DNA of 64,000 nucleotides, taken from contig OZ287749.1 of assembly GCA_965649765.1 (NCBI GenBank), forward strand, positions 76,322,001 to 76,386,000, read 5' to 3'. Under the pieces are notes generated by a model. That model was not told where the DNA came from. It ran no database searches and saw nothing but the letters and a program-made list of their open reading frames with translations. Both the position numbers and the translations under genes were made by a program. Position 1 is the first letter of the stretch; each line of letters begins with the position of its first letter. This DNA comes from Bispira polyomma. Its lineage: Eukaryota. Positions 24,925 through 63,500 of this stretch are shown piece by piece.

Positions 24925-25581
24925 TTAGTGTGGTGCGGCACCATTGTTGCACTTATCGCCATCACAGAAGCAGTAGATGGCACCACCTTGGTAATGACAT
25001 CCGGTCTTGTAGGGGTTCACACCAAACTCGCCCTTGTAGCAACCTCTGAAGATGTCTCCATTGGGGTCCTTTCTGACATAGCAGTTGCTGGAGCAGTCCC
25101 ATACATCAAGACCAAACATCTCTGCTTCCTGACCACTGAATGGGCCCATACACTTGTCCCAGCCTCCATTGATGGTGTAAGGCACAGGTACATAGGTTTT
25201 CTTCACATAGCCTCCCTTTTGTTGTCCGTAACTATTTTTCTGCTGCTGTTGTTTGTATCCACTCTGCTGCTGTTGCTGGTGTGGTTGTTGTCCGTAGCCT
25301 TCACTGGACTGGTGTCCGTATCCTTGCTTGTTCTCTGTACCGTATTCCTTGCCGTATTTTACAGACTCTACAACGATCTTTTTACCATAGTAGGTCTTGG
25401 GTGGAGAGTATGCACACTGGTAGCAATTCTTTCCTTTCTTCTTGTAGGTCTTGGGCTGGTCCCCATAGCCTACTTGCTGCCCATATCCTTCCCCTTCTTC
25501 TCCTCCTGCATTAGACTGGTATCCAAAGCCATAACAAATGTCAATGATTACAGCAAGGCAGAGGAGAACCAAACCTTTCAT
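24925..25581 (-). CDS. Secreted Gly/Tyr/Gln/Lys-rich Ly6/three-finger (Quiver-like) protein, copy 1 (218 aa)
   Basis: Intronless ORF; signal peptide MKGLVLLCLAVIIDICYG; 10 mature Cys in LU spacing (CYQC...C...CSSNC...RGC...C...CFCDGDKCN); conserved in three copies; upstream TATA. Confidence 0.9.
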   Translation of the reverse strand: MKGLVLLCLAVIIDICYGFGYQSNAGGEEGEGYGQQVGYGDQPKTYKKKGKNCYQCAYSPPKTYYGKKIVVESVKYGKEYGTENKQGYGHQSSEGYGQQPHQQQQQSGYKQQQQKNSYGQQKGGYVKKTYVPVPYTINGGWDKCMGPFSGQEAEMFGLDVWDCSSNCYVRKDPNGDIFRGCYKGEFGVNPYKTGCHYQGGAIYCFCDGDKCNNGAAPH

Positions 25582-25685
25582 GGTTGATGATGGTTTTTGC
25601 AGTGTTTTCTAAAATCGGTTAATGTATTGTGAGCTGTTTTCAAGTGACTAAACTGTTCCATGGTCTGTATTGAGTTGTGTGTTGC

Positions 25686-27114: not shown

Positions 27115-27232
27115 GCAACACCCGGCTCAACACAGACCACAAAACAGTTTTGTTACTTGAAAACAGCTAAGAAGTATATAATACACTACAAAACAGATTT
27201 AAGTAAACACTGTGCTAAAATCACCATCAACC

Positions 27233-27856
27233 ATGAAAGGTTTAGTTCTCCTCTGCCTTGCTGTAATCATTGAAGTTTGTTATGGCTTTGGATACCAGTC
27301 TAATTCAGGAGGAGGGGGAGGATATGGGCAGCAAGTAAGCTATGGGTACCAGCCCAAGACCTACAAGAAGAAAGGCAAGAATTGCTACCAGTGTGCATAC
27401 TCTCCACCCAAGACCTACTATGGTAAGAAAGTCGTTGTTGAGTCTGTAAAATACGGCAAGGATTACGGTACAGAGAACAAGCAAGGATACGGACACCAGT
27501 CCAGTGAAGGCTATGGACAACAACCACATCAGCAACAACAGAAAGGAGGCTACGGACAGCAAAAGGGAGGCTATGTGAAGAAAACCTATGTACCTGTGCC
27601 TTACACTGTCAATGGAGGCTGGGACAAGTGTATGGGCCCATTCAGTGGTCAGGAAGCAGAGATGTTTGGTCTTGATGTATGGGACTGCTCCAGCAACTGC
27701 TATGTCAGAAAGGACCCCAATGGAGACATCTTCAGAGGCTGCTACAAGGGCGAGTTTGGTGTGAACCCATACAAGACCGGATGTCATTACCAAGGTGGTG
27801 CCATCTACTGCTTCTGTGATGGTGATAAATGCAACAATGGTGCAGCACCTCACTAA
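27233..27856 (+). CDS. Secreted Gly/Tyr/Gln/Lys-rich Ly6/three-finger (Quiver-like) protein, copy 2 (207 aa)
   Basis: ATG at 27233 in ACCATG context (the ORF-track start at 27212 is non-ATG); same signal peptide and Cys framework as copy 1. Confidence 0.9.
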   Translation: MKGLVLLCLAVIIEVCYGFGYQSNSGGGGGYGQQVSYGYQPKTYKKKGKNCYQCAYSPPKTYYGKKVVVESVKYGKDYGTENKQGYGHQSSEGYGQQPHQQQQKGGYGQQKGGYVKKTYVPVPYTVNGGWDKCMGPFSGQEAEMFGLDVWDCSSNCYVRKDPNGDIFRGCYKGEFGVNPYKTGCHYQGGAIYCFCDGDKCNNGAAPH

Positions 27857-31934: not shown

Positions 31935-32643
31935 ATAAGTGAGCATTAGTGGATATTCATCAGTGAACCTCTCAGATTGTGAAAAATTGTTGGTGAGTTA
32001 TGTCCAATTATTAATACATTTTCATAAGTCTGTGTTGCTCGGTAAAAAATGGTTACAATTAGGGAATGTGTATTCATTGCAATTTGTATAAAAATGTTGT
32101 GATTTTATCTCATATTAATGTCGTGATTGTGTCAATAAGCATCAGTTAGTGACCATTCGTTGGTATTAGTGAGGATTTGTTGCAAGTTGTATCACAAATG
32201 GGCAGTTAGTCGGGATTAGTGGGAAATTGTGTACAAAAGCCATAAATACTGGCAATGCTGCCATTATTGAACAAACTTCTGTGCAGAGCAGATGTAGTCT
32301 TAAAAAAATTGTATTTAAATTTTAGAATTGCCATCCATTTGGGTTCCTATCCCTTGAACACAGGTTGACACTTCGTGATATTTGTACTGGCTTGTGAACT
32401 GTTAGTCTGGGTCACAACAGAAGTGACTTGAGGCTTCACTCTTCCTACCTCTGGTGACATGCTGACCTTCCTCTTTGACTCTGTTTAAAAGTTCCTTTGT
32501 TTCTGGCTTTGTTTCATCTCCTGAAGAGTTATATTGTGGGTGTGTGCCTGTGGAACACTGCTTGGAGCGCACCACCCCCTCATCTGCTACTCCTAATGGG
32601 ATTTCGCCTCAGATGTTTCTCATAGAATGGGCAACCATGGTTA

Positions 32644-33890
32644 TGTAAACAACAAAAATTACTTAGCTCTGCTGTAAACTTATAAAGAGGATTGAAGCAG
32701 ATAGAGGGTCCCGGTCCAGATCAATTCGGGTAAATTTCAACCCTCCTTCAGAGGTGGTTTGAAGCAGATTGAGCCAACCCTCTATGTAGTGTGAACGCTC
32801 TCAATCCGGGTTGAGTGGGGTTACAATGGGGAGTACTGTAAAGTTTGAGATTTAAGCTGGGTGGGCTTGTATAGATCGAATTCATCACTGTTTTAGAGAG
32901 AAAGGCTTTTCTGAAATGGGGCATATTGAATTCGTGGTGGATTACTGTTTTTTATAAAGCTTAACTTCTTTGGTGGGAAGTATAGTAAAGTGTATACATT
33001 TTAATCAAGGAACATCAAAATTGTAATCAAATAAACTGTGTTAAATAAAATAAATTACATTTTTAATTGGGCCTTATTCAATTAGTTTTTGGTGATTAAT
33101 CTTTGTTCAAGCTTAACTTGTTTGATGTAGCTTAATTACACAAATAGAAACTTCTTATGTTTTATTGCTATTCGCCTTTTGCTCAGGTTTAAGGGACTGA
33201 CACAAATTACTGTAAATATTCTGATTCATTAGAACAAATCAAATTTACCTTTTTCATAGTTTTGTGTAAAACATTGCTTATCAATGAACTAAGGAAATTA
33301 ATTTCCCCCATAAAACATTTTATTTAACTAACAGATATATGACCCCACACAAATATACACGGTTTTACTGTATTTAATTCTCAACACCTGCCCCATAAAA
33401 CAGCAAGTCTTTAAACCCCAGATTATGTTTTCTAGTCTGGACACTAAACCCGGATTCAGCTTAATCCGGTTCGATCCCGAATCTGGGTCAATCGGGATTA
33501 GTCTAAACAGGGCCTTAATAGTCCAGCACATTAACATTTGAGCTAAAGGGGAAACCCCCAAAGCCTGAGTGTTTAATGCACTGATACACACATATATTAC
33601 ATGTCTCTCCCCCTACAAAGACCTGACCACAGGTCTTATATACTGCTACCACATTTATTCTATTAACTTACTTGGCTTATGAGAGGGGGATCTTACAACT
33701 GAACTCCAATCTGTAAACAACAGAAGTTACTTAGCTCAGCTGTAAACTTTAAAAAGGACTTGCTACTGCTGGAATTCGATCCTGGGCTGTCATGGATTTT
33801 GAAATTAATAGTCCATTACACCAACAGTTGAGCTAAAGATGAAACCAAAAAACTGGAGTGTTTAATTCACTGATATACACGGATATTACA
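32644..33890 (-). mobile_element. Miniature non-autonomous LTR retrotransposon (TRIM) with tRNA-like sequence in its LTRs; 3' LTR interrupted by a truncated DNA-transposon fragment (about 32692-33514)
   Basis: LTRs TGTAA...TTACA at 33712-33890 and 32644-33601 (split); 4-bp TSD GTTA on both sides; 110-bp interior with a TGG-starting PBS-like site (33708) and PPT AGGGGGAGAGA (about 33604-33614); A-box/B-box-like motifs in the LTR. Confidence 0.75.
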
Positions 33891-34567
33891 GTTATAATGT
33901 GACAACTGATCTCGGCTGAGTAATTGAACTCTATCTGTGCCATATGCAGGGGTATGCTATGGAATTTTGATTTAGGGGGCTGTATTACTTAGCCATGTAA
34001 GGAACTTAAGTGTTAGGCTAGAATGTGGCCTGGCCCTGATACTTTAATATATCGGGACTGAACTTAAAAATTGTGTATTGGGAGGTGGCTTTAGCCAGCA
34101 TGCTCATCGGGGGGTGAACCTTAAAACTCCACCACCATAGCCCTGGAAAGATTACTTCAAGAAAAGCATTTTGTTTTGACAACAAGTGTAATATTATTCT
34201 TAATTGGTTAAAACACTCTCTACAAATCTCATTGGTTGACCTTGTGGGTCACTGCTTGTGTTGTGGGTATTTTCCTCACTTTGAAATTACAAACTGAGGT
34301 ATCAACAGCTGTAGTCTGCTTAAATTGGACGCCATTGTACTATTTTAACATTTACAAACTTTTTAGTTGTGATACTGGACTATTTTATCATTTATTGGAC
34401 TGTTCAAGTGTTTTATGATTGATACACACATTCATTTGTACGTGGTAAGTGTTTTATAGTGACAGTGCAGGAGACAAAGTATATTGAACAATATAGTTTA
34501 TCATGGTCCGGTCCGTCAATGTATATGTTGCTGTATTTTATATACAAAGAAATGAACAGTAAATTGC

Positions 34568-35838
34568 AGGGTAATCATAGATCTGAGTTGGCCGGAAGGT
34601 GGTAGTGTAAATGGGGGTGTCCTGAAGGACTCCTACTTAGGTACCAAATTTATCCTTACATTTCCTTCAGTTGATAATATAGTAGAGCAAGTGAAGTCCT
34701 TTGGAAAGGGCTCACATATATACAAGATAGATATTTCTAGGGCATTTAGGCATGTCAAGATAGATCCCAAAGACTATGATTTGTTAGGCCTCTACTAGAA
34801 AGACTTCTATACTGACACATGTCTTCCCTTTGGGTCTAGGCATGGTAGCCAGATCTTTCAGAGAATTAGTGATGGAGTAAGGTATATCATGAGTAAAAAT
34901 AACCACAAGATTATCAATTATATTGATGATTTAATAGGCTGTGGTGTACCCAGCAAAGCTAAGGCAGCGAATGACTTCCTGTACCAATTACTAGGTGAGT
35001 TAGGTCTTACCATCAGTGCAAAAAAGTTAGTTCCACCAAGTACACAATGCATATGTTTAGGAGTACTAATTGACATTGTACAAGGTACCATTTCTATTCC
35101 TGTAGACAAACTAGAAATCAAAGTCAAAACTTGTGCCACTTGGTAGGATTTTGAGGTAACCACAAAAAGAAAACTGCAGTCATTATTAGGTTCTCTCTTA
35201 TATGTCGCAAAATGCTGCAAGCCAGCTCGCATTTTCCTGAACAGAATGTTGACTACTCTTAGAGCTGCTAGTAATCCGAAGCGTATTGTACCAGATGAAG
35301 AATTCCACAGGGATGTTAATTGGTTTCAGTCTTTTGTAGCTCAGTACAATGGTGTCACCTTCTTTAACCACAAGCCGGTGGCTGCAGTCATTGAATTAGA
35401 CGCATGTTTAACTGGGGTAGGGGCCAGGTATGGGGATAGGTTATACACTCTACCAATTCCCCAGTCCATCCAAAGTATCGGATAGTCAGACTAGAAATGG
35501 TAAATATTGTGGTGGCTTTGAAGGTGTGGGGTAGTTACTGGAAAGACAGCAAAGTGGTTATCCGTTCTGACAATAGTGCAGTAGTATCAGTGTTAAACAC
35601 AGGTAGGACTCGAGACAAATACCTTGCAGCTTGTGCAAGGAATGTATTTCTCCTTACAGCTAGGCACAACATAGACTTAAAGGTAGTGCACATTTTAGGC
35701 ATTAATAATGCAGTGGCTGATACACTATCCAGGTGGATGGGCTCCAAATCTCAGTGGCAAATAATAAACAGGCATGTTAATGATCCTGTTTGGTGTGACC
35801 TTAAGCAAGAGGCCTTCCACCTGGATTGGTCCATATAG
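34568..35838 (+). pseudogene. Reverse transcriptase / RNase H of the YR retroelement (disrupted)
   Basis: RVIIDLSWP, YKIDISRAFRH, LPFGSRHGSQIFQRISD, NYIDD, LQSLLGSL, IELDACLTGVG, IRSDNSAVV, NAVADTLSRW; stops at about 34796, 35144 and 35483 plus a frameshift before 35497. Confidence 0.9.
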
Positions 35839-35869
35839 ATTAAACATTATTGTAGGTACTACTCCAGTC

Positions 35870-36835
35870 ATGAAGGCCCTGACCACTGGTGCCATTGGGA
35901 GGCTCACAGGAGCATTCAGGCCGTCTACACAACGAGCCTATACGGCTATGTTTAGAAACTTCTTAGGGTTTTGCTGCTTCACAGCTATTTCAGTGCATAG
36001 AATTACAGTCCATGTCTTATTGGCATTCATGGAATTCTTGGCCTACAATAAGACCTCTCCATCTCAAGTGGCCAATTACATGGCAGCTATTAAGTCCAGT
36101 TTATCAGTATATAGCCTACCAGTTCATGTGTTTTCGGATAATAGGATCAAATTGTTCCAAAAGTCATTGTTACTAAACAGACCACTCACTGTAAAAATGA
36201 AAGGCATATTCCAAGTGCAGGACTTGGAAAAAATTGTCCAGTTGTCTGACACTATGTTTATGGGTCAGGTGTATAAATCCATTTATTTGTTAGCATTTTT
36301 TGCTTTCTTTCGTATTTCAAATCTAGTTCCACATGCAAATGAACCATTTGATCCATCGGTTCACTTGGCCAGAGGAGACATCTTTTTTGCTCCACCAGGG
36401 CTGCAAGTACTACTGAAATGGTCAAAGACCATGCAATCAAAGAATAAGGTTCAGCCAATTAAAGTTCCCTCACTAGGTGGGTCTCCAATATGTCCTGTAA
36501 GTGCAGTAAAAAATGTATTGTCCCTTACATCTGGGGGAAAAAATCACTAGTTATTCCAGATTAAGAAAGCAGGTGGTTGGAGTCCACTAAATGATAACAT
36601 GGTTAGGCAACATTTAAAGAAAGTGGTATTGGCTTTAGCGCTAGATCCTTCTACTCACCCCTTTCATACCTTCAGGCATTCAGGTACCACCTTGGCATTC
36701 AACTCTAACGTTCCAATACAACAGATCCAAAAACATGGTACCTGGACGTCTGATTACGTCTGGAAATATATTGTAGACACCCAGGACTCGGCTACCCAGG
36801 TGGCTACTACCTTTCAAAATCTACTTTCTCAATAA
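35870..36835 (+). pseudogene. Tyrosine recombinase of the YR retroelement (one in-frame TAG at 36548-36550)
   Basis: FFRISNL (R), KWSKT (K), CPVSA, HTFR (HxxR), HGTW, WKY (catalytic Y); ORFs 35774-36550 and 36599-36835 are in the same frame. Confidence 0.9.
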
Positions 36836-40346: not shown

Positions 40347-40982
40347 TTAGTGAGGTGCGGCACCATTATTGCACTTATCGCCATCACAGAAGCAGTAGAT
40401 GGCGCCACCTTGGTAATGACATCCGGTCTTGTAGGGGTTCACACCAAACTCGCCCTTGTAGCAACCTCTGAAGATGTCTCCATTGGGGTCCTTTCTGACA
40501 TAGCAGTTGCTGGAGCAGTCCCATACATCAAGACCAAACATCTCTGCTTCCTGACCACTGAATGGGCCCATGCACTTGTCCCAACCTCCATTGACAGTGT
40601 AAGGCACAGGTACATAGGTTTTCTTCACATAGCCTCCCTTTTGCTGTCCGTAGCCTCCTTTCTGCTGTTGCTGATGTGGTTGTTGTCCGTAGCCTCCACT
40701 GGACTGGTGTCCGTATCCTTGCTTGTTCTCTGTACCGTATTCCTTGCCGTATTTCACAGATTCTACAACGACTTTCTTACCATAGTAGGTCTTGGGCGGA
40801 GAGTATGCACACTGGTAGCAATTCTTGCCTTTCTTCTTGTAGGTCTTGGGCTGGTATCCATAGCTTACTTGCTGCCCATATCCTCCCCCTCCTCTTCCTC
40901 CTCCTCCTGAATTAGACTGGTATCCAAAGCCATAACAAACTTCGATAATTACAGCAATGCAGAGGAGAACCAAACCTTTCAT
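40347..40982 (-). CDS. Secreted Gly/Tyr/Gln/Lys-rich Ly6/three-finger (Quiver-like) protein, copy 3 (211 aa)
   Basis: ATG at 40982-40980; near-identical to copy 2; flanks 39600-41730 homologous to the flanks of copies 1 and 2. Confidence 0.9.
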   Translation of the reverse strand: MKGLVLLCIAVIIEVCYGFGYQSNSGGGGRGGGGYGQQVSYGYQPKTYKKKGKNCYQCAYSPPKTYYGKKVVVESVKYGKEYGTENKQGYGHQSSGGYGQQPHQQQQKGGYGQQKGGYVKKTYVPVPYTVNGGWDKCMGPFSGQEAEMFGLDVWDCSSNCYVRKDPNGDIFRGCYKGEFGVNPYKTGCHYQGGAIYCFCDGDKCNNGAAPH

Positions 40983-41088
40983 TGTTGATGATGGTTTTTG
41001 CACAATGTTTACTAAAATCGGTTAATGTATTGTGAGCTGTTTTCAAGTGACTGAACTGTTTTGTGGTCTGTGTTGAGTTGTGTGTTGC

Positions 41089-42165: not shown

Positions 42166-45138
42166 AATACTGTGTTGACAATATAGATGGAGTCAATATA
42201 TTTACACAAAATGGGTAAATAAGTGTTGACTCGATTGGAGTCCAATGCCAAATAATATTGATAACCCGAGGCAAAAGCTTCATTCATCCTGTCTGAATAC
42301 AAACTGTATTCTATTGTATTCAAATTTGTGGCCAGCGCATGTATCTACCTTTATATATTATTAAAAATGTTAATTCTTGATTGTCTAAGTACAGCCAACC
42401 AGTAACTGTCATTAAACTGAAGAGGGAGAGGCTCAAGGACACAGTTTATTAATGTACCAAAATGATCTTTAGCCTGCCACTGAGGATAAGATCCAATGAC
42501 TGAAGCCCTCTATTTGACATAGTCAGGCTGGGATTGAACCCATCCAAGTTGTCTGTATTCATACGTGAGTGTATTACTCACTAGGCCACAGTGGCAAACT
42601 TTCGAAGTAAGACTTTCAAAACTAATATGCTTTGGATTTAAAATGGAAGCAAAGTCTTTAAACAAATCTTTTTTAGTGGGGGGCATGTGACCCCAGTATT
42701 GAGCGTGGGGATTTAGTAGACCGAGTTTTCTGTCGTCGATATGGCCGTTTTTTTGTGATGGTGGCCGTTGGTGACAGAGTTGTTTACTATAACAAATTGT
42801 TGTAAATGTGAAACAGCATATTTAGGCATACACTTCATTTGACCATCATATAATGTCAAGGACATCTGTATTGATCTTTCCTTTACTTATGTAGATAGAA
42901 TTATTTTTGATCTTGTTTTATTAAAATTATATCATTGGGTATCATTGGTATTAAATAAAAATGTAAATCTGTTATAATGTCAAATTATTTCTATCAGAAA
43001 ACCCCGAGAAATCCCATAGGAAGAGATGGTGTGCGCATGCGCCAACAGGTTCTCGCTATCAAACATGGAGGATAAATTTACAGAAACCTTTTATATATCT
43101 TGTATAAATTAAAATATTGATGATCGGCATTCAATAAAGGCTCTTGTACAAAACAAACCATTTATCTTCAATTCCATATATTTTTTACTAGCTAAATCCT
43201 TATTTTGGGTTGTTATTTCTTACATTTTCGTTGCTGTTACACATTGCATCGTTGGCTAGAATCTATAATGTTGCCCATGGCATATATGTGTTAGGTTGAT
43301 AGTATATATGGTGGTTTTGTAGTTCAGAAAGCTTGACTATAGACCTTGTTAGCCACCATCCCAAAGAAGATAAATGAATATATTGGCCATTACGCCTGTG
43401 GAAGGCTACAAACAAATGTGCAAGAAAAGGTGTGGACTGAACTAATTGCTAATCGTGTCAGAAATCAAAAACAAGTCTTCAGTTCTGCACAATTTTTTCG
43501 GTTTAAATACTGTATAAGTTGACACTTTCACTGAGAATTAATATCTGCCGGTGAGACTGTTTGGTAATAGTTATAATTGCCTTTTAAATTTGTATCAATT
43601 TTGTTTTTTTAAAAAATGAAACTTTTTCTAGTAAATTTCTTGAAATTGTACATCAGATTAGTGAAATTTATCTTTATATGCAGCATATGCAGCTGTAGTA
43701 TGTTTATTTGGACAAACTGAGTTCGGTAAAAGTGACTGCTATGTGAAATAAGTGAAAAGTAAAGCTATACATTTACTAATTAGATATAAAGGAAAGTCAT
43801 TTAGATCATACTATAACATCTATAAATATGAATTTTGATTATGCCAAGTCTAAGATATAGAATGTCGAAGCTCATATTTAAGAATAAAATCACAAACTCC
43901 AGGGTGAAGCCAGATGTTATAAATTGTTTATCTTCTTTTTTAATGGTTTGAAAAGTATTAAACATCCTAAAGGTTATGTGTATTGTTTTATTTTAAGTAT
44001 GTTGATCGGCTCGTTACTGTAGCCTCTTTGGTACTGGACAACTGGACATTGTATACCTCTGTCAGTAGGCTATGTTTTTACATCTGGCTGTTGGTTCTTT
44101 TGTTTGTTTGCTCCTTTATATGTAGGATTATACAAACATACTAAACTAATTTTGTGGAGGGCTAGGGCATGAGCCGAGAAAGAATCCAGTAAATTTTAGT
44201 GGAGTACACACCTCTTCCAAGGCATCACAGGGCAAAAAAGTGTGAAAACCCTTATTCTTAAAGTATCACAGAAATATCAAACATTATAGAAGGGTAGGAA
44301 TGAGCCCAAAATAATCCATTAGGTTTTAGTAGAGCGCATATCTTTGCAAAGACACAATAAGTGAAAAACATTACTGGATCCACACTAATTAAGTGGGGGT
44401 TCGACATTCAGGTTTGGTCCCCGACCTTCCGGATTTTGAGGTCCGGGACACATACAGGAAGGTCGGGGAGCAAAAACGGTGTGGTCGGGAAGGTCAGGAA
44501 GAATGTAAAAAAAGCTAATATTTTGAAAATGGTCCCGACTTTGGTCCTGGACCTCACAGTTGGGACCATCAATACATTCGATCCTTTTGCCAATATGTTC
44601 TATCGGATAGGTCGGGCGCACTGCCGGACTGTCCTATTGCCGGCCCGGCCTGTCCTATTGGGATCCGCCCCTTTTTCAATATGACAGGCCGGGCCGCCAA
44701 TCCGATCGAACTTATTTGGCTCCCGACTTGACGTATTACACCCCGTTTGTACTTTTTGTCATCCCAGCAGAACTTGGTGTGAATACGTTTTTTTACCCGG
44801 ATCAAAATTAACACAGCAGGACAGAACATATTGGCTATCAGATCTACCGGGAGAGGTAAAAGATCGAACAGGGGGAGGATAGGACAGAACTTATCAGCAA
44901 TAGGATCTGATGTATTCAGTACCGACCAATAGGATCGAACTTATTCAGTATGGGATGTTTGGGTATAAAGACATCCCGTCAGTATTGGACTTGTTGTATG
45001 TGGAAATTGCTGACTGGCACAAAGTTGTGTTTTTTTGTAGAGAGGGATTTTTATTGTTTTTAATTAGTTATATGTTTTGAGTTTAGGGCAAGTTTTACAG
45101 TTAGGTTTTTTTCACACACAACATTAAAGATACCTATA

Positions 45139-46002
45139 TTGAGAAGAGTCAAGAGGAAGATTGTGGAGGAGAGAGAGAAGGAGTTTGAAGTGGGAGTTTC
45201 ATCTGATGAGATAGAGAGGAAGAGGAGAGATGACAGGGGGAGTCCGACAGTCAGTGAGAGAGCAGAGAGTGAGAGAGAGGATGCTTCACAAGGATTGCCT
45301 GGATCTTCACAGTACAGAGGACGCATGAAGAAGGCAGGAAAGATGGTCCACGTCATACTGACAGAGGAGGACGAGGAAACAGTGTTGGATTTTGTCAGAG
45401 ACAACAAGGTGCTTTTTAACAAGCGCCACGAACAGTTCAAGGACAGGACACTGAAGGAGAAGTTGTGGTCCGATTTTGCAGCTACCTGTGATTTGAAAAC
45501 CAACGAGGTTAGGACTTGGTTTGAGTCTGGACAAGCCGCACCCGATTTTACAGAGCGAGAGAACTGGCTAATCGCGCACTTCTCGTTTCTGGGATCACAC
45601 ATTGTCAGGCATGTCAAGTTTTCAGGCTTCAAGCCCAGCGCGACGTCCACTCAGGGATTGTCACCACCCTACCAGGGAAGCCACGCTGTGTCCAGATGTT
45701 CCAGCATCGGAGAAGAAGGCGACAGCGTCACAGAGACCAGTCTCAGGAGCCTCCAGAAAAATTCCCCATCTCGACTCAGCTCAGATGCCAACCAGATGCT
45801 AGGAGAGCACCTCACGCAGAACAGGACACTGATGAGTAGCTTGGTTGGAGAGCAGAGAAGTCCCCAGAAGCCTGTGACCAACCGTAGCGCCTTTTTCGCC
45901 TACCTATCAGCCGAGGCAGAGAAGTTGGACGAGGGCGAGTTTCAGAAGTTCCGAGACAGTACCTTATCCTGCCTCAGCCAGATCCAGCAAGGCAGAAGTT
46001 AA
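45139..46002 (+). CDS. Harbinger MADF/Myb-SANT-like DNA-binding protein (probably damaged; frameshifted continuation to about 46680)
   Basis: LTEEDEETVLDFVRDNKVLFNKRHEQFKDRTLKEKLWSDFA..VRTWF, W-L...FSFL..HI and C-terminal SAFFAYL..E...L...F..F; first ATG at 45325. Confidence 0.75.
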   Translation: MRRVKRKIVEEREKEFEVGVSSDEIERKRRDDRGSPTVSERAESEREDASQGLPGSSQYRGRMKKAGKMVHVILTEEDEETVLDFVRDNKVLFNKRHEQFKDRTLKEKLWSDFAATCDLKTNEVRTWFESGQAAPDFTERENWLIAHFSFLGSHIVRHVKFSGFKPSATSTQGLSPPYQGSHAVSRCSSIGEEGDSVTETSLRSLQKNSPSRLSSDANQMLGEHLTQNRTLMSSLVGEQRSPQKPVTNRSAFFAYLSAEAEKLDEGEFQKFRDSTLSCLSQIQQGRS

Positions 46003-47819
46003 CCCCTCAGAAGTGCCTTCGCCAGACCAGCCTTGACATTTACCCTGTTGCAAGCGCCTGGATTGAGCTACGTGGTGATGGATAGAGCTACAGAGTCTTC
46101 GGCTGTTGCACAGAAGCCCGCGTTTCAACAGAACTTTTCGTCCCAGCAGTCTTAGCACCCACCACAGTACGTTGTGGTAGGTAGAGCTACAGAGTATTTG
46201 GCTGCTGGGTCGTCACAGCAGAAGCCTGCTACCACGTTTCAACAACAGAACTTTCCGTCCCAGCAGTCTCAGCACCCACCACAGTTTGTTGTGGTGGGTC
46301 CAGCTACAAAGTCTTCGGCTACTGGATCGTCTGTGAAGTCGCTGACTTACTTCAGCATGGAAGAACATTCAGGGGTTGCTACTAAGTTGAAGATGCCGAG
46401 CATATCTCCTAGTAAACAGTACTCAAACCCGCCTTCTAATGCGTTCTTGTTTGAGGAGTCTGCACACAACACATCAACAATTTTGAGCTTTCTGAGGAAG
46501 TACAACAGCGAACTACCCCAGGAACACGCCACAGGAATATTGGTAACGCCTTTACCAGTGGACAATCAGCAGTCACAAGTGGTCCTGATCGACAACACTG
46601 ATCATCTCACAGGCCCCCCACACCTCAGCCAGAGTCCGAGCCCGTGTCACAGCATCAGCTACACCTCAAGCCCGCTTCACTAGCACCGTCTACTTCTACC
46701 ACTCCACGACCAACACCGCCACAGTAGCCAGTCAGCAGTCTCCAAAGGGGGTGGTGTGTTTCGAGCCACCCCAACGTCACCTGCGGCCCTTTTTAGGGCC
46801 ACTCAATTCCCCCAAGAACAATATGTTGAGCTTTTGTTAAAAAAAATAAATCCCAAACATAAGATTACGCTGTCCCCTCAAAAAAAATTAACACTCATAC
46901 AGACCAGACTTACTTATCACCCCCCCCCCCCAATAATTGTTTGTGAATGTCCAACTTGTCCCTGTTTAGATAATTTTGTTTGAGAATAGGGGGGGTGGGG
47001 GGGGAAGAATTAAAACCTCCCAAAATTGCCCAAGTAAGTATCTAATTTAGAATGAAAATCCCTATCCCCATTGGAAAAGTTTTTGTTAAGTGACAAGGGA
47101 TACCAAATATGAGATATTATTAGAAAAAAGAAATAAAAAGTCTGTCAAATCAGTCCCAATAAGTACCAAATTGAGATATCATGTCCCCATCCCCATAATA
47201 AATGTTTCTGATAAATAATGACAGACAATAATGGTAAGAAATTGTTTTAGAAGGGAAGACAGTACAAAGTCTGTCCCAAATAACCCAATAAATACCAAAT
47301 TGAGATACAAGCTCCCCAGGCTGTAATGCACTGTGTGTGTTTTTGGGGGAAAAGAAAAATCCACAAATAATTTTGAGGAAAAGGAATTGAGAATCTTTTT
47401 CTTAAACTTTAATTTATGTGTTGATGCAATGAAAAGTTTTTTTTGTAGGCAAAATAAATAACCTCGTGAGATAAAAATCTTCCAAATGAGTGGTCACACA
47501 ACTTTTTCTGGTTTCAACCCTTTTTGCCCAAAACAACTGGCACCAAGGGGTTTCATTATGTCTGTGTGTGTAGGGTTTTTAACATTTTCAATGTTTTGTG
47601 GGAGGACTGGGTAAGTTGTATGTATGTAGGGGTCCTGGGTATTACATTTAGTGATTGTTATTTTTAATGGGTTGGGGGTGGGAGTGTAACAAACAGCTCA
47701 AACATTGTTTTTAAAATATTTGGGTGGTCCTGAAAAGGACCTTTTAAATTTTTTGCTACTGCAAGACCTCTGGGTTGGCTTCTCATCTGGCTGAGGTAGT
47801 TAGGCTCAGGCTTAGGTTT

Positions 47820-49076
47820 AACTCTTTCCTCTTGCCACGGGACTACCCCCTCATTCATAAAAAAGTCCATTAACACGTCCCTCTGTTCTTTGGCTGCCCT
47901 GGATGGGTTTTTGTGGGTGGTCGGTCGATTTCCAAGTAACTACACCTCGGGTTCAGGTGGATCATCTTGTGGGTTGGGGTGCTCTAGTGTTAGGTTTCTA
48001 CACCGGCTTCTCAGTATGTTATGTAATATCACACACGTCAATATCAGATTTGAGGCCACTAGGGGGTGCTGTTGCATCATCGTCAGTAATAGGCAGAAGC
48101 GGCTGGCCAAAATCCTAAAAGCATTCTCCACTACCCGCCTTCCCCTGGATATCCTGTAGTTACAAATTCTCTGTGCATGGGTGAGTTCCTTCCTCGAGTA
48201 GGGTTTTATCATCCACGTTTTCAGAGCAAAGGCGTCGTCCCCCACCAGAAAGTATTTCACGTCACGTCGAGACCCCTCAAACAGTGGTGCAGGTCTGGGC
48301 AGCCCAATGGATCTATCTTCTATCTTCTGCTTGAGCTCTGAGTGGTTAAAAATTTGGGTGTTGGAACAGGAACCACTACAGCCAATGTCCACCCAAATAA
48401 ATCTGTAGTCCGCATCAACCAGGGCAAACAGGACAATGGAGTGGAAGCCTTTGTAGTTGTAGAATTCGCACCCAGCCTTGGGAGGCTTCTTGATGGCCAC
48501 GTGCTTCCCATCGATAGATCCAACAGCATGAGGGATATTCCACCTGTTCCTGTAGACTTCTTCTATTTTCAGCCAGTCTGCGGGGGTGGTTGGGCAGGCT
48601 AGATTTTCTGTCTCATATTCCCTAATGATGGTCTTGCATACTTCTGGTATAAACTTGGTGATAGATGATTTCCTAACCCTGAACTGGTAGGACAGGGACC
48701 TGTAGCTCTCCCCAGTGGCCAGGTGCCTCAAAGTTACAGCCAGTTTCAGTCCAACATCCAAGGGCTTTCTGAACCAAGTTATTTCTTTTTTCACATGGGG
48801 TGTTATCCTATCCTTGATTTCGTCAAATATATCAGGTGGTAGCCTGAAAAAATTCCTGTATGAGGCTGCATCCCCTTCCTGTACCTCCGGCACTAAGTTT
48901 GTGTAGTAGCCTAGGGTCTCTCTCTGACCGATCCAAGGCTTGACCCAGCAGATGGGTGACATACGTGGAAGTCTAATCTTCTGCGGGGGAGCCCAAGAGG
49001 CGCGTGGTGGTGTTGAGTTCAAATCTTCCTGAGCCTGAGCCTGAGCCTTGTCTTTGTCATGTTGTAATATAAGCAT
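47820..49076 (-). CDS. HARBI1-like DDE transposase (frameshift near the C-terminus)
   Basis: KLAVTLRHLATGESY, GSIDGKH (D), YNYKGFHSIVL, LVGDDAF (D), NYRISRGRRVVENAF (E), CVILHN; tail EQRDVLMDFFMNEGVVPWQ is in another frame. Confidence 0.9.
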
Positions 49077-51602
49077 GAGGATACATATTTCAATCTAAAA
49101 AAAAACTAAAAATGTCCCTAGTCTCCTCAAAATATCTTCATCACTTCTTCCTGGCATTTTACTCAATTACTCAATCATTAATGAGCTGATTACCCAAAAA
49201 TTCCTGAGTTTTAGGGCTCAAAAAGAGGTACTTATAGGGTCTGGAAGCACTCCCGACTTCATCTTTCAGAAAGTTTGATCCTATTGGTCGGAATGACCAA
49301 TAGTCAGATCCTATAGTCAATATGTTCTATCCTAAGCCAATACGTTCGATCCTATCGCCAATAAGTTCGATCCTATCAAGGTCAGGGGTCAATGGAGTTT
49401 AAAGTCGTACGGCCTTTACGTATGATCGGGGTCGCGGGCACGTCAAAACGGCGCGCAATCAGTTCGATCGGGAAGGTCGGGGCACATTTTCATTTTCCCG
49501 CCCAAAATGTGGATTTTATTGATTTCTTGGTCCCGACCTTTCCGACTTTAAAGTCGGGGTCTTTTTGCCGACCGAAATTGTATGTGGAACCCCCCCTTTT
49601 ATGAATAATTCTTCTTTGGCCCATACACTTATTATTTGTGTCGGTATGTGGGCCCTGGTGGATGAATGCGCTCTACTTAGTCTTGTTTTATGTTGTGACC
49701 AGTTAACCATTTTCCTCTATCTAGCTTTTATGTAAAAAGGATAATTATACCCATTGGTGATACTAATAATGATAAAAACACTATATTTTGTTCAGTGAAA
49801 CTAGGAATGAGCTGAATGATCAGTATCATAAAACTGACACCAAAATATATAATTAGAAGTGGATAGATTAATATATATATAATGGATATAACAATTACAC
49901 GTTTACACAAGTTTTTAATATAGGCTTGTATAATACGTTTGTTTCCCCTGATTTGTAAACTGAACTAGTTTACTCAATATAAATTTTTTTTTTAGTCCCA
50001 CTAGCAACAAAACTTTGTTGTAAAGACAGACCCCAAAAGGACATAAATAGTTACATTACAAGTCAGCCAAGATAAGTCATTATGTTGATCTTGTTTTTCT
50101 AACCTATATGTGGATCCAGATTAACCTCACCAGGTCCAAAATAAACATAATAAGTAGATATATGTGAGGATTTTATTTTTTTCTTTTACAAAAACTTTGT
50201 AGTGAATACAGACATAAACAGTTAGATTAAAAGTCACCAATCTAGGTTACTATGCTGATCTTGTTATTCTGGTGTCAATGTGAATCCAGATTTTAAAAAA
50301 TCTCAATAATTGGACACATTTTTGTATTTTGCAAAAACATCAGAAGTTATAGGGTAAATATGTAAATGAGACAAATATATGTCAGTTTCTCGTGTACTGG
50401 CAAGTGATCTTTACTGGTCACAGATAATGTCAGATCAAGGTCAGAGGTCTCTATAATACATTGAAAGATGTGGTTCATTATTTATTGTTAGACTAAATAT
50501 TGTTAGCATTACACATCTATTTACATAAAGAATAGAGGCGATTGAAAGTCACCATAACTTAATTAAGGTTACCATAAATAAGTCTGATAAAGAGAAAAAA
50601 CATTAGGCTCAACTTAAATGAATTAGTTTTAACTTAAAGTTGATGAAAAAACAGAGTTTAATAACTGTATACCTTGTGCTATAAAATTAGAATAAGATAA
50701 ATATTTGAATTTAACTAAATGTAATTAACCATGCATTACTAAGTGGGCAGATACAATTAACTATGAAAATCACCCAAGCACCAGGATAAGGTAGGACATT
50801 ATCGTGGTGGAGCACCAGTTAAAGGATGCCACTTGAACATGTCAGATACTTCCTGACCAGCAATCACAGTGTCAGAAACATACCTCCACACACAGTCCGA
50901 CGTCCAGGTGCCGTTTTTTAACTATGTTGAATGCTGACGTTGTGAATAAAGGCAAATGTACCTCCACAAGGGACGGTGTGGAAAGTAAATTCTGAGTTTT
51001 GTATCTGCAACACATAAGTCAAATGACGCCCTACCCGGGTAACAGCCAAGAGAATCCATGGTTGGTTCAATTTGACCTGGAACAGTGGGTAAATATTTCC
51101 ACTGAGTGGGACAGCCAATGCAACAGTTAAAGCCCCAGCAGGGCAAAAATACAAATTTAAAATTTCAATCAAATAAGCTTTAATATTGAAAACAATTAAA
51201 AATATTAATATTAAAAACAATTAAGAAATATAAAGCAATCTAAAGTCACATAACATCTAAATCAAATAAAGCAGAAACTTTTAAAATATGTATAAGCAAA
51301 ACAGATTGTCATATATTTAAACAATTTAGTCACATTTAAAGTTATATAAGGTACTTATATAACAAGAACCTTTAATTCAAATCAATTTGAAAATAATATG
51401 CTCATAATATATTTTTGTACTGTCTATATTTATATACGCTATCTACAAATGGCAAATATATAAGTTTGTGAAGTTTATGTTAATACTACCATTATGACAT
51501 AAAATTAAACAAGCTGAAAACAATTATTTAAAGTTTAAGCATGGTGAATACAGTTGCCAAAGTATCAAACTTGGTATATATATTACTTTATGGAATACAA
51601 GG

Positions 51603-52398: not shown

Positions 52399-55300
52399 TT
52401 ATAACATTTTCTCTGTGTCTTCCTTTCCTTTGATTCTCACTCCAAGTTTGCCTTCCTCTTTGACTTTCCTGAGAAACTCCACCCTGTCTTCCCATTCTGG
52501 CATCCCATCCCGCATTTCCTCATGAATGATGACATCAATGCAGTCATCATATGCAGAAGAAACCCTTCTGCCAGATATCTCATTGATAAGTTGCAAATTT
52601 CTGATGGCTTTCTCGATGTTGCCTTCAACATACTTCTTTGCTTCATCCGAACTGCTATCTATGGCATTTAGAAGAATGCCCACTTTTTCCTTTTTGTCTA
52701 CTTTGTATTCTTCTGGGAGATCTGAAAACTTCTTGGTGTGCTTTTCCATCTTTAAGAAAATTTGAAAAGCTCTGTTGAAGTGTTGATCCCAGTAACAGTT
52801 CCCTGGACATACAGTGCAATATCCATCCTTCATCGCACAACATCCATATTTTGCATCATCATCCACTACTGCACAATTGGCATGACACGTGACAAAACAT
52901 ATAGAGCAATTGGTGACCTGTTCTCCACAGTATGGCAAATTTCTCTTGACCTTGACAGGTTTGAAGATTTTGTACTCAAAGTCTGGCACTTTCTCGATAA
53001 AAACATCTGGTCTCACCTTTTCTTCTATCAGGTTTTTCTCTTCTTCCATCACTCTGAGCCTTTGGCAGCCAATTCTAACCAAATTATTTAATTGCCTCAA
53101 ACCTTCAGTGGCTTGGTCTCTTCTCTCAAGGTTATCGGGTGTGATGTGCAAACTGACTGGTTTCTCAGATTCTACCTTTTCAGATAGGGCATCAAGTGCT
53201 TCTTGAGTGCCAGACCATGCTGCCTGCAGGCTCTTCTCAACTTTATTGGCATTACTGTAGGGTATGGCCTTCATTTTATTAAAGGCAATCATGTTATTAA
53301 AGAAATGCTTATTGCTCTCCCACAGCTCAGAATCTGCAATAGCTTTCATTACAGGCATGTCATCATCTTCTTCTGAAAATCCAACCAAATTGGTTACTTT
53401 ATGTTGCAGTTGTTCTCCATACATCTGCACAAGTTCCCTATAAACTTGTAAATACATTGGATGCACTGCTTTAGCTTGAGCATTGTAAACAAACCATATC
53501 GCACTAAAGCAGTCTACTTCATGCGCTACTGGTGCGTTCATAAACTTTTTTAAGTTATCCACAACCTCTTGCTCATCCACTCGGTTCTGCCGAACTGTAC
53601 TAAAGCCTGGCATATCAACAATATTCAATGCAAATGGCAGAGTAGTGTTAGATGTGGATGGAATGGTGTAAACATTGATCCATTTGGGCCGATTTGGACT
53701 ATTTTCCTCTGGATCTGTGATTCTGAGAGTAAACTTGTCCTCCCATTTGACCCCAAGTGCATGGTTGGTCACACAATCTATCAGGGTACTCTTGCCGCAA
53801 TCCTTTGCACCAACGACCAAGATGTTTTTCTGTGGGTCAATCCTTGAAGGATTCCCTTTACGTTCAAATAGAAATGAACAAAATAGTTATATATCTATCT
53901 CTAATTTTAGGAACTAATTTAAGTCATAAAAAGTTTAAAATCATATTTAAATATTGTGTTTAAGCCCTCAAGTGTTACATCATCAAAAAGCTTCTTTTTT
54001 TGGATCGAGTAGCGATAATTTTATATGTTTTTGTTATTAATCCCTTAATGCCTACCTTGGCTATATTCATGCATTTACGGAGTTTGTTTTTAATTTATTA
54101 TAAAATATGTACTAGATTACAATATACACATGGGTATTGTAAGTTGTCAACACTATTGACAAGCTTGAATGAAACATTTGTTTCACTGTTGGATATAGTT
54201 ATCTTGCCAAAGTTGTTTGTTTTGCCAAAGCATTGCTTAATAACACATCTACTGTTATAAATATATACCTATTTTGAAAACCTCACATTTAATGGTAAAA
54301 CCCCCAGTAATATAATTGAGGAATCTCACCAAAAGTGGTGCCTTAATGTAGAGGGACAATAGTTTTATCTCCTATCCAGTAAGCAGTATATTAGACTGAT
54401 GACTAATAGAACACAGACCCAGAACCCTACCAGTGTACTTCACTGTTAGCTAAATGCATATGTATGACATCAATACATACCCAGCATATACCCAGAACCC
54501 TACCAGTGTACTTTATTGTTAGCTAAATGCATATGTATGGCATCAATACATACCCAGCAGGGGGCCGCGGTGGCCTAGTGGTTAGCAAGCATTGCGCTTC
54601 ACAATCACTGGTCTCTCACCTCTGGGTGGTGTGAGTTCGAATCCCGTCAATGCCTATGTGGGAAAGGTGGTAGTTCCTTACTGTGGGCCGCTGGTTTCAG
54701 TGCAGAACCTTGATCAACTATATGCAGTGTTTCCTCCAGCGTTTCCAACTACCCGTCGGACTATAACCTAAATAGGTACTAAAGTGGACGTTAAATATCC
54801 AAATTAAAAAAAACAAACATACCCAGCATATACCCGGAACCCCAACAGTGTACTTCATTGTTAGCTAAATACATATGTATGACATCAATACATACCCAGC
54901 ATATACCCAGAACCCTACCAGTGTACTTCATTGCTAGCTAAATGCATATGTATGACATCAATACATACCCAGCATATACTTCCTGGCACCACAACTTGTA
55001 TCTTCCCATGCTTTCACCATGGGAAGTTTTATCACTGTCCTACCATTAAGTTTGTATGCCATGGCTTCAGTGACCCTGTCTGGGCTATCATGGTTCTTCT
55101 GTGTTCATGTGAAAACAAAATATACTTTGTATATGTAACATCATAACTAGATAAAATTTACCCTTCTATCATAGATATTACAGATTATATTATGTCATTG
55201 ATATTATAGATATTTCTAAAAGGTAATATTCCCAAAACAATCATTGTCTAAAACCTACTACAATAATATAAACTAGATCTTTTGACAAAGTGTTGTCTTG

Positions 55301-60521: not shown

Positions 60522-63500
60522 TTATAACATCTTTTCAGTGCCTTCCTTCCCTGCAATCCTCACACCAAGCATTCCTTTATTCTTTAACATTTTTAGAATA
60601 TCCACTCTCTTCTCCCATTCAGGCATTCCATCTCTCATCTCTTCATGGATGATGACATCAATGCATTCATCAAAGGACTTGGAGACATCTCTGCCAGATA
60701 TTTCATTTATAGTGGCCATGTTCTGCATGGCTTTCTCTATGTTATGCTTCACATTTTCCTCCGTTGCACCAGACTTCCCTGCCAAAGCTTCCAGCAACAC
60801 ACCAACCTGCATCTTCTGATCAACGTCAAACTCCTTTGGTAATTCTGAAAACTTCTTGGTCTGCTTTTCCATCCTTATGAAAATTTGAAAAGCTCTGTTG
60901 AAGTGTTGATCCCAGTAACATTTCCCTGGACATACAGTGCAATATCCATCCGTCATCGCACAACATCCATGTTTTGCATCATCATCCACCACTGCACAAT
61001 TGGCATGACATGTGACAAAACAGACGGAGCAATTGGTGACTTGTTCTCCACAGTATGGCAACTCTCTCTTGACCTTGACAGGTTTACAAATTTCATATGT
61101 AAAATCAGGTACCTCACAGATAACTTGCTTTTCATTCACTTTCTCCGTGATCATATCCTTCTCTTGATGCATCACCTGGAGCCTTTGGCAACCCATTCGG
61201 ATTAAGGTATTCAGTTGCCTTAGTCCTTCGGTTGCCCTTTCTCTTCTTTCCAAATTTTCCGCAGATATGTGTGCACTGAAGGGTTGAGCAGACTCCACCA
61301 TACCAGACAAGTCATCGAGGCCGTCTTGGCTGCAGGACCATGACTCTTTCAAATTTTTCTGGAACTTATCAGCATTGCTATATGGATTCGCTTGTTGTTT
61401 GTTGAATACTAGCATGTTGTTAAAGGACATGATCCTTTCATTGGGTAATCCTGCTTCATCAATGGCATCTACCACAGGCCATTTTTCGTCATCCTTAGCA
61501 AATGTAATCAAATTAGTGATACTGTTGTCAATATTCCTCCCATAAACATTCACAAGCTCTTGATATATGCGCTTGTATGCTGCTGGAACATGCTGTAAAT
61601 GGGCTTGGTAAACAAACCACACCCCACTAAAGGAATCTATCTCATGTGCAACAGGATTCTTCATAAATTTCTTCAAGCTGCTGATAACATCGTCATCAGC
61701 TTTATTCTGCCTGACTGTACTAAATCCAGGAACATCTACAAGATTGACGGCAAATGGCATTGCTGTGTCAGATGTAGAAGGGATGGTATAGACATTGAGC
61801 CATTTGGAACCATTTTGATTTAAGCCTTCATCTGGATCTGTGATTCTCAATGTAAACTTATCGTTCCACTTGACACCCAGTGCATGGTTGGCCATACAGT
61901 CGATCATGGTGCTCTTACCACAATCTCTTGCACCAATCAGAAGTATACTCTTCTGTGGATCTGTTTTAGAAGGTTTCCCTGAAAATAGATCAAATAAAGT
62001 ACTCATTTAAATAAAATGTTGTTGTCTTTTTAAAAGTAATCTTCAGTGGCTATTTGTCATTCCACAAGCATGTGTATGTGGTTCACTTACCATATGTTAA
62101 TGCAAACTAACCAGGTACATCATGAACTGAACCGGTATCGTATGATCCAATATTTATTTCTTATTTCTTAGATAATGTCTTTCGTTACTATATTTAAGAC
62201 AATTTTCGACATTTTAAGTTCATTTTGTTTATCTAATCTTGGTATTTTTACATAAAATCTTAAAATGGCATAACTTCAATCACCGAATCATTCCTATGTT
62301 GCTTTATTGTAAATATAATTCAAGTCAAGGGATTGCATAGTTATTTTTAGCAATATATAAGTGGTCATGGTAGAATTCAGATAACCCACTACTTGTGCTA
62401 CAATGTTTTAAAATAACTGCATTGCACTTTTGTTAACTAATATATAATTACTAAACAAGTAAGTGGGGTTATGGACATAATGAGAAGGTCAAGCTTTACC
62501 TAACACATATTTTCTTGCACCAAGACCTACATCTTCCCATACTTTTACAAGCGGCAGTCGCACAATGCAACGACTATTGGACTTGTAGTTTGAGGCCTTT
62601 GTCACAATTTCCTTTCCAGTTACAGCTTTCTCCTATAAGAATAAAGAAGTACTTGAATTAAAAATGAATTACTGTCTGTATAGAATATATGGATGGAGTC
62701 AGCTGATGTAGTGCTTTCTGTTTGATGGACTTTATAGAGTTGTTAACCCTGGGCCTTTTATCTTTTACTAAAATAGTGACCTCGTGCTGCTGTTGTATAA
62801 TGCAGGTTTATTCATACGACATGTTGTGCCATAATCAGATTGTATTTACTATCGTTCAAATAGTCAAACTACACATAATAGGTGTTTAGCCCCCTTTTTG
62901 ATTCACTACATGACTTCAAATAGTCAAACCACACATAATAGGTGTTTAGCCCCCTTTTTTGATTCACTACATGACTTCAAATAGTCAAACTACACATAAT
63001 AGGTGTTTAGCCCCCTTTTGATTCACTACATGACTTAAAATAGTCAAACTACACAAAATAGGTGTTTAGCCCCTTTTTTGATTCACTACATGACTTCAAA
63101 TAGTCAAACCACACATAATAGGTGTTTAGCCCCCTTTTTTGATTCACTACATGACTTCAAATAGTCAAACTGCACATATTAGGTGTTTAGCCCCCTTTTT
63201 GATTCACTACATGACTTAAAATAGTCAAACTACACATAATAGGTGTTTAGCCCCCTTTTTGATTCACTACATGACTTAAAATAGTCAAACTGCACATATT
63301 AGGTGTTTAGTCCCCTTTTTGATTTACTGCATGACTTAAAATAGTCAAACTACACATAATAGTTGTTTAGCCCCCTTTTTGATTCACTACATGAATTAAA
63401 ATAGTCAAACTGCACATATTAGGTGTTTAGCCCCCTTTTTGATTCACTACATAACCTAAAATGGTTGAATATGACATGAAAACTCAAACAATCCAAAATT

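Follow-up and report, generated by a model that had tools for sequence, protein, structure and literature searches.

The element at positions 32644..33890 of the window, by which we mean the whole 64,000-nucleotide stretch of Bispira polyomma DNA analysed here, is an old, decayed copy of a Helenus-type miniature LTR retrotransposon (TRIM), which lies on the minus strand and carries no genes. Elements of this kind have already been published as Helenus (Kojima 2024, PMC10886601), and the hybrid of LTR and tRNA is itself known; what appears to be new is a family in a new phylum, an interior derived from the primer, and a recurrent correction of the primer site. The first ~47 nt of the interior are recognizable as a decayed complement of positions 76-27 of tRNA-Ala(AGC). 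We hold it to be likely that the account as a whole is right, namely that this is a Helenus-type TRIM, probably transcribed by Pol III and probably copied by Gypsy machinery, with tRNA-Ala(AGC) as its putative primer. The features of the window copy, in the direction in which it is read, are the following.

33891..33894, no strand: target-site duplication (TSD) GTTA on the 5' side of the element, a 4-bp duplication in the sequence
33712..33890, minus strand: 5' LTR, 179 bp, TGTAA..TTACA, intact
33825..33835, minus strand: A box, fitting TRGYnnAnnnG
33773..33781, minus strand: B box, 43 bp past the A box, GWTCRAnnC in many family copies, here with T as last base
33766..33842, minus strand: tRNA-like cassette, limits approximate, not foldable as a tRNA
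33602..33711, minus strand: interior, 110 bp
33694..33711, minus strand: 18-nt primer-binding site (PBS), tRNA-Ala(AGC), in the mismatched form of the majority, decayed further in this copy
33667..33686, minus strand: block complementary to tRNA-Ala(AGC) positions 46-27, with A opposite 37 at 33677 and C opposite 34 at 33674
33618..33637, minus strand: 8-bp hairpin immediately upstream of the polypurine tract, kept between subfamilies (cross-group identity 0.76)
33604..33614, minus strand: polypurine tract (PPT)
33515..33601, minus strand: 3' LTR, first 87 bp (U3 and A box)
32691..33514, no strand: MITE, presumably PIF/Harbinger-like, at TTA, repeated in the genome, left end deleted
32644..32690, minus strand: 3' LTR, last 47 bp
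32640..32643, no strand: TSD GTTA on the 3' side of the element, a 4-bp duplication in the sequence

Without the MITE, the copy is 468 bp long and non-coding, and no open reading frame of at least 110 aa was found over it. The positions of the PBS and of the purine tract show that the reading direction is that of the minus strand and that the intact LTR is therefore the 5' LTR; the two LTRs are identical at 112 of 132 aligned bases. The 179-bp LTRs, the GTTA duplication and the 110-bp interior described in the first-pass annotation are all present where it placed them, together with a PPT, and the start of the PBS is to be set directly after the CA of the LTR. The start of the site in the family, TGGTGGAG, is decayed in the first bases of the window copy. 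Furthermore, one B box of this copy is gone and the other is damaged, having T where the published consensus ends in an invariant C. Contigs from two sequencing runs at the window locus are dominated by other copies.

The MITE in the 3' LTR has 645 candidates in the genome, of which the best 40 were scored. Its relatives have terminal inverted repeats, with TAA on both sides in one of them (L037), and TTA or TAA targets are seen at single ends in L033, L034, L036 and the window; from this target we take the MITE to belong to a PIF/Harbinger-like superfamily. The loss of the B box had been placed at a DNA-transposon insertion, and the MITE is indeed inserted in that LTR, but the loss itself came about by a later deletion, which removed 47 bp of the 3' LTR, B box included, together with ~28 bp of the left end of the MITE. 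Elsewhere in the window (45064-49094), a minus-strand frame with a DDE_Tnp_4 domain (Harbinger-type transposase) faces a plus-strand frame in a GC-richer stretch, and is possibly a relative of the mobiliser of the MITE.

A search of the 1.04-Gb genome with a 289-bp element query returned 2,358 first-look candidates, and among the best 40, which were scored, non-self copies are 79-83% identical over the query. A 16-mer of the LTR has 1,571 exact genome matches, as against 0 for the control. Copies were sampled in three groups, A (window-like), B (L108-like) and C (L164-like), from which near-duplicate loci were removed (5, 2 and 4). The layout of LTR, interior and LTR is present in most of 30 family loci, and solo LTRs and tandem arrays also occur. 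Among 69 elements examined, 37 have clean ends; this set, in which two near-duplicate pairs are still included, contains 15 exact 4-bp duplications and one exact 5-bp duplication, where shuffled pairing gives an expectation of 1.1 for exact 4-bp duplications (maximum 7). With up to one mismatch allowed, the count rises to 24 of 37, compared to 6.5 by shuffling. The paired LTR/TSD structure, on whose presence in other copies the first-pass annotation had made its reading depend, is found in other copies of the family.

The best non-self identity over the full query is 83%, 77% and 81% for three queries (best 40 candidates each), and the LTR pairs of clean copies are 83-92% identical. The family looks old and long inactive, in that no non-self copy exceeds 83% over the full query among the best 40 candidates per query, a sampling that could have missed a young subfamily. 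It is probably without an existing name, which lends support to the earlier suggestion of a possibly new family: a motif search in the accessible text of the Kojima 2024 supplement, where line breaks can hide matches, gave no family match, with five of six family motifs absent and the sixth not at the primer site. Six copies on six contigs (L003, L004, L005, L009, L010 and L018) have identical flanks, and so represent a single insertion that was spread inside a larger repeat. At another location (G000 C1 105962653-105963266) the A-box 16-mer recurs at 48-bp intervals, where part of the LTR seems to have turned into a short tandem repeat.

The cassette of the LTR was compared with the A- and B-box consensus given in PMC4333407 (TRGYnnAnnnG and GWTCRAnnC). 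Both boxes, at a spacing of 25-60 bp, are found in 16 of 36 LTRs of group A, 15 of 44 of group B and 6 of 28 of group C, with 0 on the antisense strand of the LTRs and ~0.001 in shuffles. Hence, of the tRNA-like cassette originally claimed, the boxes stand, far above shuffles, but the proposed check for tRNA covariance came out negative: ARAGORN made no tRNA call in the window or on the 30 family loci, and Rfam gave neither a tRNA nor a 5S rRNA match in the window stretch or 20 family loci. Folding of the cassette is no better than that of shuffles (z -0.3 to -1.5 in five copies), and the cloverleaf and conserved anticodon arm of a functional tRNA gene are missing from it.

Between groups A and C, identity is 0.80 in the A box and 0.69 in the B box, as opposed to 0.23 in the anticodon region, 0.31 in the variable region and 0.34 past the B box, the figures of the middle regions being depressed by gaps; the spacing of the boxes differs (31, 33 and 43 bp) while the boxes are retained. 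Since the boxes are kept and the tRNA arm between them is not, this is the pattern of a kept promoter rather than of a kept tRNA. The U3 is also kept between groups (0.60-0.66), and a Pol II or upstream promoter would accordingly be an alternative. A T4 run past the B box is present in 10 of 36 group-A LTRs and missing in 26 of 36, so that read-through is possible.

In order of similarity, 66 LTRs set against 42 host tRNA sequences favour Lys-CTT (z 10-15) and then Thr (z 5-8), these z-scores being inflated because they treat related copies as independent; similarity to host tRNA-Lys and tRNA-Thr exceeds that of all 60 shuffles. In the window copy, the 5' half of the cassette is nearest to host tRNA-Lys-CTT and its 3' end to tRNA-Thr-AGT. 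The donor may have been Lys-like or a mosaic, as judged on an incomplete host set that lacks Lys-TTT, Cys, Gln, Glu, Gly, His, Met, Phe, Pro, Trp, Val, Asp and true Asn, and in which ARAGORN mislabels several intron tRNAs. A further search for host isotypes mostly led back to the tRNA array that was already in the set. The likeness to an intron-containing tRNA-Tyr noted at first is not borne out, host Tyr genes reaching a z of 0.4-3.5, below Lys-CTT and Thr, and this origin was rejected on the basis of this incomplete set. An initiator-tRNA motif, considered as a potential source of the B-box arm, has no exact genome match. Large tandem arrays of tRNA genes, with many decayed copies, are located at G000 C3 12.38-12.43 Mb, C7 38.3-39.4 Mb, C8 47.3-47.4 Mb and C11 11.5 Mb.

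The start of the PBS in the family is the complement of the 3' end of tRNA-Ala. When the PBS was checked against host tRNA 3' ends, as had been suggested, tRNA-Ala(AGC) fitted best, with a median of 8 anchored matches, as against at most 5 for the other isotypes compared. The site exists in two states. Among 62 copies selected by similarity and with a readable PBS, 60 carry 5-10 mismatches over the 18 nt and two carry none (one of these being the query), the majority form having ~6 mismatches in 18 to tRNA-Ala; exact-pattern searches of the genome find the mismatched form 246 times and the perfect form 56 times. Half of the perfect-site loci examined (15 of 30, from the 56) belong to the TRIM lineage. 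Of these 15 copies, 14 agree with the tRNA at nt 17-18, which lie outside the search pattern, and 1 agrees with it at nt 19-21; the matching ends at nt 19 in 13 of 15. This 18-nt end of the perfect match is where retroviral plus-strand synthesis halts before m1A58, the 18-nt break described in PMC11251516.

In a tree that covers 68 copies and omits the PBS, the 12 perfect-site copies require 11 changes, a number equal to that for shuffled labels, and a single clade of these 12 is rejected (p-AU 3e-53). As the mismatched form is common to all three groups, it is the earlier of the two, and the perfect form has arisen more than once, the scattered perfect sites pointing to repeated copying from the primer. 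Nucleotides 11-18, although they mismatch tRNA-Ala, are kept between groups A and C (0.79). Self-pairing was rejected as the cause, there being no folding partner of nt 11-18 that is common to the three groups; their conservation would call for an added assumption in our model, and escape from tRNA fragments may be one reason. A third form of the site, found in L159, L162, L169, L209, L215 and L225, matches tRNA-Ala to ~nt 13 and then diverges, and may be a site that was corrected in part and gave rise to a subfamily.

Past the PBS, the complement continues. Nucleotides 19-42 of the interior alone pair with Ala-AGC at -23.5 kcal/mol, the next isotype reaching -17.6, and 0 of 100 shuffles are as low; for a control stretch, 93 of 100 shuffles pair as low with Ala-AGC. 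The block complementary to positions 46-27 could be placed in 59 of 68 copies, with match rates of 0.88-0.98 at most positions and lower ones at CpG (30 and 29) and at 46, and it ends abruptly, position 27 still matching at 0.88 and position 26 (G26) at 0.02. Within the block three mismatches are fixed: C opposite A34 (53/59 copies), A opposite A37 (54/59) and, at position 39, T (54/59), which still permits a G-U pair. The first-pass annotation had seen a PBS-like site in this interior but had overlooked the antisense copy of the primer tRNA and the two states of the PBS.

All 20 Ala-AGC gene calls examined in the host have A34 and A37. In human, Ala-AGC bears I34, m1I37, m1A58 and m2,2G26, of which the last is known as a stop (PMC5066629); in reverse transcription inosine behaves as G, and 1-methylinosine in general as T (PMC4446420). 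Of the three fixed differences, two thus fall, as does the end point, where the reverse transcript of a mature tRNA would place them, and the imprint was likely written from the modified, mature primer, with modifications predicted from other eukaryotes. By our own rough estimate, the chance that two of three mismatches fall at modified positions is 0.002; the imprint goes back to a single ancestral event and was recognised in hindsight, and no modification explains the mismatch at position 39. The copying process is seen again in two further copies with fresh runs past A58: in L117 the run follows the tRNA almost exactly and mismatches it opposite A58, and in L132 the run is shorter. Finally, groups A and C agree in the block at 0.76, compared to 0.54 in the spacer, a degree of conservation in keeping with a function of the block in gripping the primer.

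Three of the 30 perfect-site loci examined (L133, L134 and L135, on G000 C9 and C1) are members of one Gypsy family, in which Pfam recognizes zinc knuckle, protease, RT, RNase H, integrase and chromodomain. A third frame, 800 aa long, has no Pfam match itself; 6 of 12 of its relatives carry Baculo_F, by which the family would be env-bearing. The frames are broken in all three copies. The LTRs measure ~885 bp, with within-copy identities of 96.6% and 99% over the stretches compared, and the 4-bp TSD is exact at one site and has one mismatch at the other, two of the copies having common flanks. The PBS is the identical 18-nt tRNA-Ala site; beyond it, no sequence common to Gypsy and TRIM was found, and the anticodon block is absent from the Gypsy. 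Since its LTR pairs are 96.6-99% identical, as against 83-92% in the TRIM, this Gypsy is younger and at best a relative of the true helper. It is a candidate helper, which shows that suitable machinery is present in the genome rather than that it served the TRIM.

No pol was found in the 10 kb examined at each of six further loci with the Ala site (0/6). A second small LTR-like family, with another LTR end, also bears a tRNA-Ala site (L107, L112, L115, L120, L123, L124 and L083); in L083 and L124 the tRNA complement extends well past A58, and L123 resembles a very short TRIM.

In the mechanism that we propose, Pol III would start immediately ahead of the A box in the 5' LTR, read through the weak T-rich signal and end in the cassette of the 3' LTR, yielding an RNA of ~370 nt with the cassette as its repeated end, which would be packaged by a Gypsy helper. 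The primer would be held in three places, at its acceptor end (8-10 nt), T stem (6 nt) and anticodon arm (~17 nt), a grip that would offset the six mismatches in the 18-nt core. Plus-strand synthesis would once have run past m1A58 along the mature primer as far as m2,2G26, placing C across from I34 and A across from m1I37. In later rounds, the first 18 nt would sometimes be overwritten with a perfect copy of the primer, in the manner of retroviruses, and ordinary strand transfers and a 4-bp staggered integration would follow.

A fuller version of this mechanism can be put forward only tentatively, and we think it possible rather than probable. It describes a Pol III mini-retrotransposon whose interior was built from the reverse transcript of a modified primer. 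A grip of ~45 nt on tRNA-Ala(IGC), anticodon loop included, would allow the PBS to be too mismatched for a block by 18-nt tRNA fragments and the primer nevertheless to be won inside env-bearing Gypsy particles. The copies would then constitute a fossil tRNA-seq of I34, m1I37, m1A58 and m2,2G26, and primer inheritance of the retroviral type would operate in a Gypsy system.

Other explanations were weighed against this account. The element might be an ordinary TRIM driven by Pol II, the LTR of which carries the inert relic of a tRNA-SINE insertion, and the failure of covariance searches to recognize a tRNA, the absence of G19 from the A-box region of the cassette and the conserved U3 (0.60-0.66 between groups) are all in keeping with this. 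A relic would hardly, however, have kept its boxes at 0.80 and 0.69 while the sequence between and after them fell to 0.23-0.34, nor kept them as their spacing varied between 31, 33 and 43 bp, and we regard this reading as unlikely. That the majority PBS is the exact complement of another tRNA-like RNA, with tRNA-Ala as an occasional second primer, has very little probability in our view. Such a primer would account for the conservation of nt 11-18 despite their mismatch to tRNA-Ala, and the host tRNA set is incomplete; against it, none of the matches listed (100 of 112) for a tRNA T-arm pattern ending in CTCCA has the needed sequence, and the interior past nt 18 is specific to Ala-AGC.

Closer to our own account is a Helenus element in which the complement grew by selection for tighter pairing and the perfect sites were acquired by recombination with co-packaged helper RNA. 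Pairing, too, favours C opposite inosine, the block is more conserved between groups than the spacer (0.76 versus 0.54), and a helper with a perfect site exists. Selection for pairing does not, however, predict A opposite 37, which adds no pair, or a match that ends sharply at G26; L117, with its fresh, near-exact run past A58, and L132, with its shorter one, speak for copying, and the perfect-site copies continue in their own interior and not in that of the Gypsy. This combination of selection and recombination is therefore improbable, and copying from the mature primer is the reading that we retain.

Some neighbours of the TRIM in the window deserve mention. Beside it, at 34799-36550 on the plus strand, lie damaged frames of RT (Pfam RVT_1 at threshold), of RNase H-like and of tyrosine-recombinase-like type, which are probably the remains of a DIRS/Ngaro-type element. 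Three single-frame gene copies (24925-25608, minus; 27203-27856, plus; 40347-41021, minus) encode a secreted-type protein rich in Gly, Tyr, Gln and Lys with a Cys-rich end, whose named homologues are all annelid, one of them the Pectinaria CM3 protein; among 26 matches of one window protein, all four named homologues are annelid. Two paralogous frames of ~495 aa lie at 52399-53886 and 60522-62006, both on the minus strand, and the second groups with AIG1/septin-like GTPases in the ESM Atlas.

If the account holds, the primer can be named from the record that it left in the interior rather than from a short match, and there is genomic evidence that an invertebrate Gypsy-type reverse transcriptase can pass primer sequence to its progeny, an inheritance reported, in the portions of the literature consulted, for retroviruses and not for Ty1/Ty3. 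The mismatched site is still the majority despite repeated correction, and a trade-off that sets priming against silencing would thus become testable outside mammals. The account would also offer one route by which a TRIM interior is born without deletion of a helper, and would widen the range of Helenus to annelids and to a tRNA-Ala primer.

Among known systems, Cassandra and Ajax are likewise TRIMs, each LTR of which contains a piece of a Pol III-type small RNA; there the piece is a 5S rRNA segment, none of which is detected by Rfam in the annelid TRIM. The first-pass annotation had named Helenus and Ajax together as tRNA-bearing LTR groups, which is correct for Helenus, whereas Ajax carries 5S (PMC10886601). 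The bivalve TRIMs of PMC6934838 are described there as being without a canonical primer site, and a 2026 meeting report (PMC12859917) does no more, in its accessible text, than cite Helenus. The open-access literature, to which our survey extended (subscription journals and Repbase lay outside its scope), yielded neither an annelid Helenus nor an interior copied from a modified primer.

Helenus (TRIMp3) is the closest relative in kind. It is non-coding and less than 1 kb in length, with two LTRs that bear a tRNA-like A/B-box cassette (PMC10886601), a PBS directly past the 5' LTR and a PPT before the 3' LTR; the animal elements have a 4-bp TSD, solo LTRs and tandem arrays are shared, and the lengths of LTR and interior are within the bivalve range. 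The beginning of our LTR, upstream of the A box, resembles, by eye only, that of the nemertean Helenus-1_NGe. Differences lie in the motifs, as most Helenus have YGG where TGT is found here, and GGTTC where GGATC mostly is; the family boxes nevertheless agree with the general consensus TRGYnnAnnnG / GWTCRAnnC. In the accessible parts of PMC10886601 and its supplement, annelids are absent from Table 1 and S1, and no tRNA-Ala primer features in Fig. S2 (hymenopterans, vertebrates and bivalves); that paper gives short primer sites, with no long antisense tRNA copy and no two-state PBS.

The two states of the PBS recall the mouse ETn/MusD elements, in which the commonest PBS mismatches the primer and perfect ones are dispersed across the tree (Cullen and Schorn 2020, PMC7472051), as they are in the annelid TRIM. 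As explanations, the authors put forward that the primer is copied and that 3' tRNA fragments are escaped. ETn/MusD is retroviral, however, and has 2-3 mismatches, compared to 6 of 18 in an invertebrate TRIM that is apparently dependent on Gypsy. According to the same review, Ty1 and Ty3 strictly inherit their own site and not the primer sequence. In these yeast elements, primer binding is bipartite, a short acceptor-end site being helped by other arms (PMC5371799), and the annelid TRIM is similar in combining an acceptor-end site with extra pairing to the arms of the primer. In the TRIM, by contrast, this extra pairing is colinear, extends through the anticodon loop, and has the look of a copy of the mature primer.
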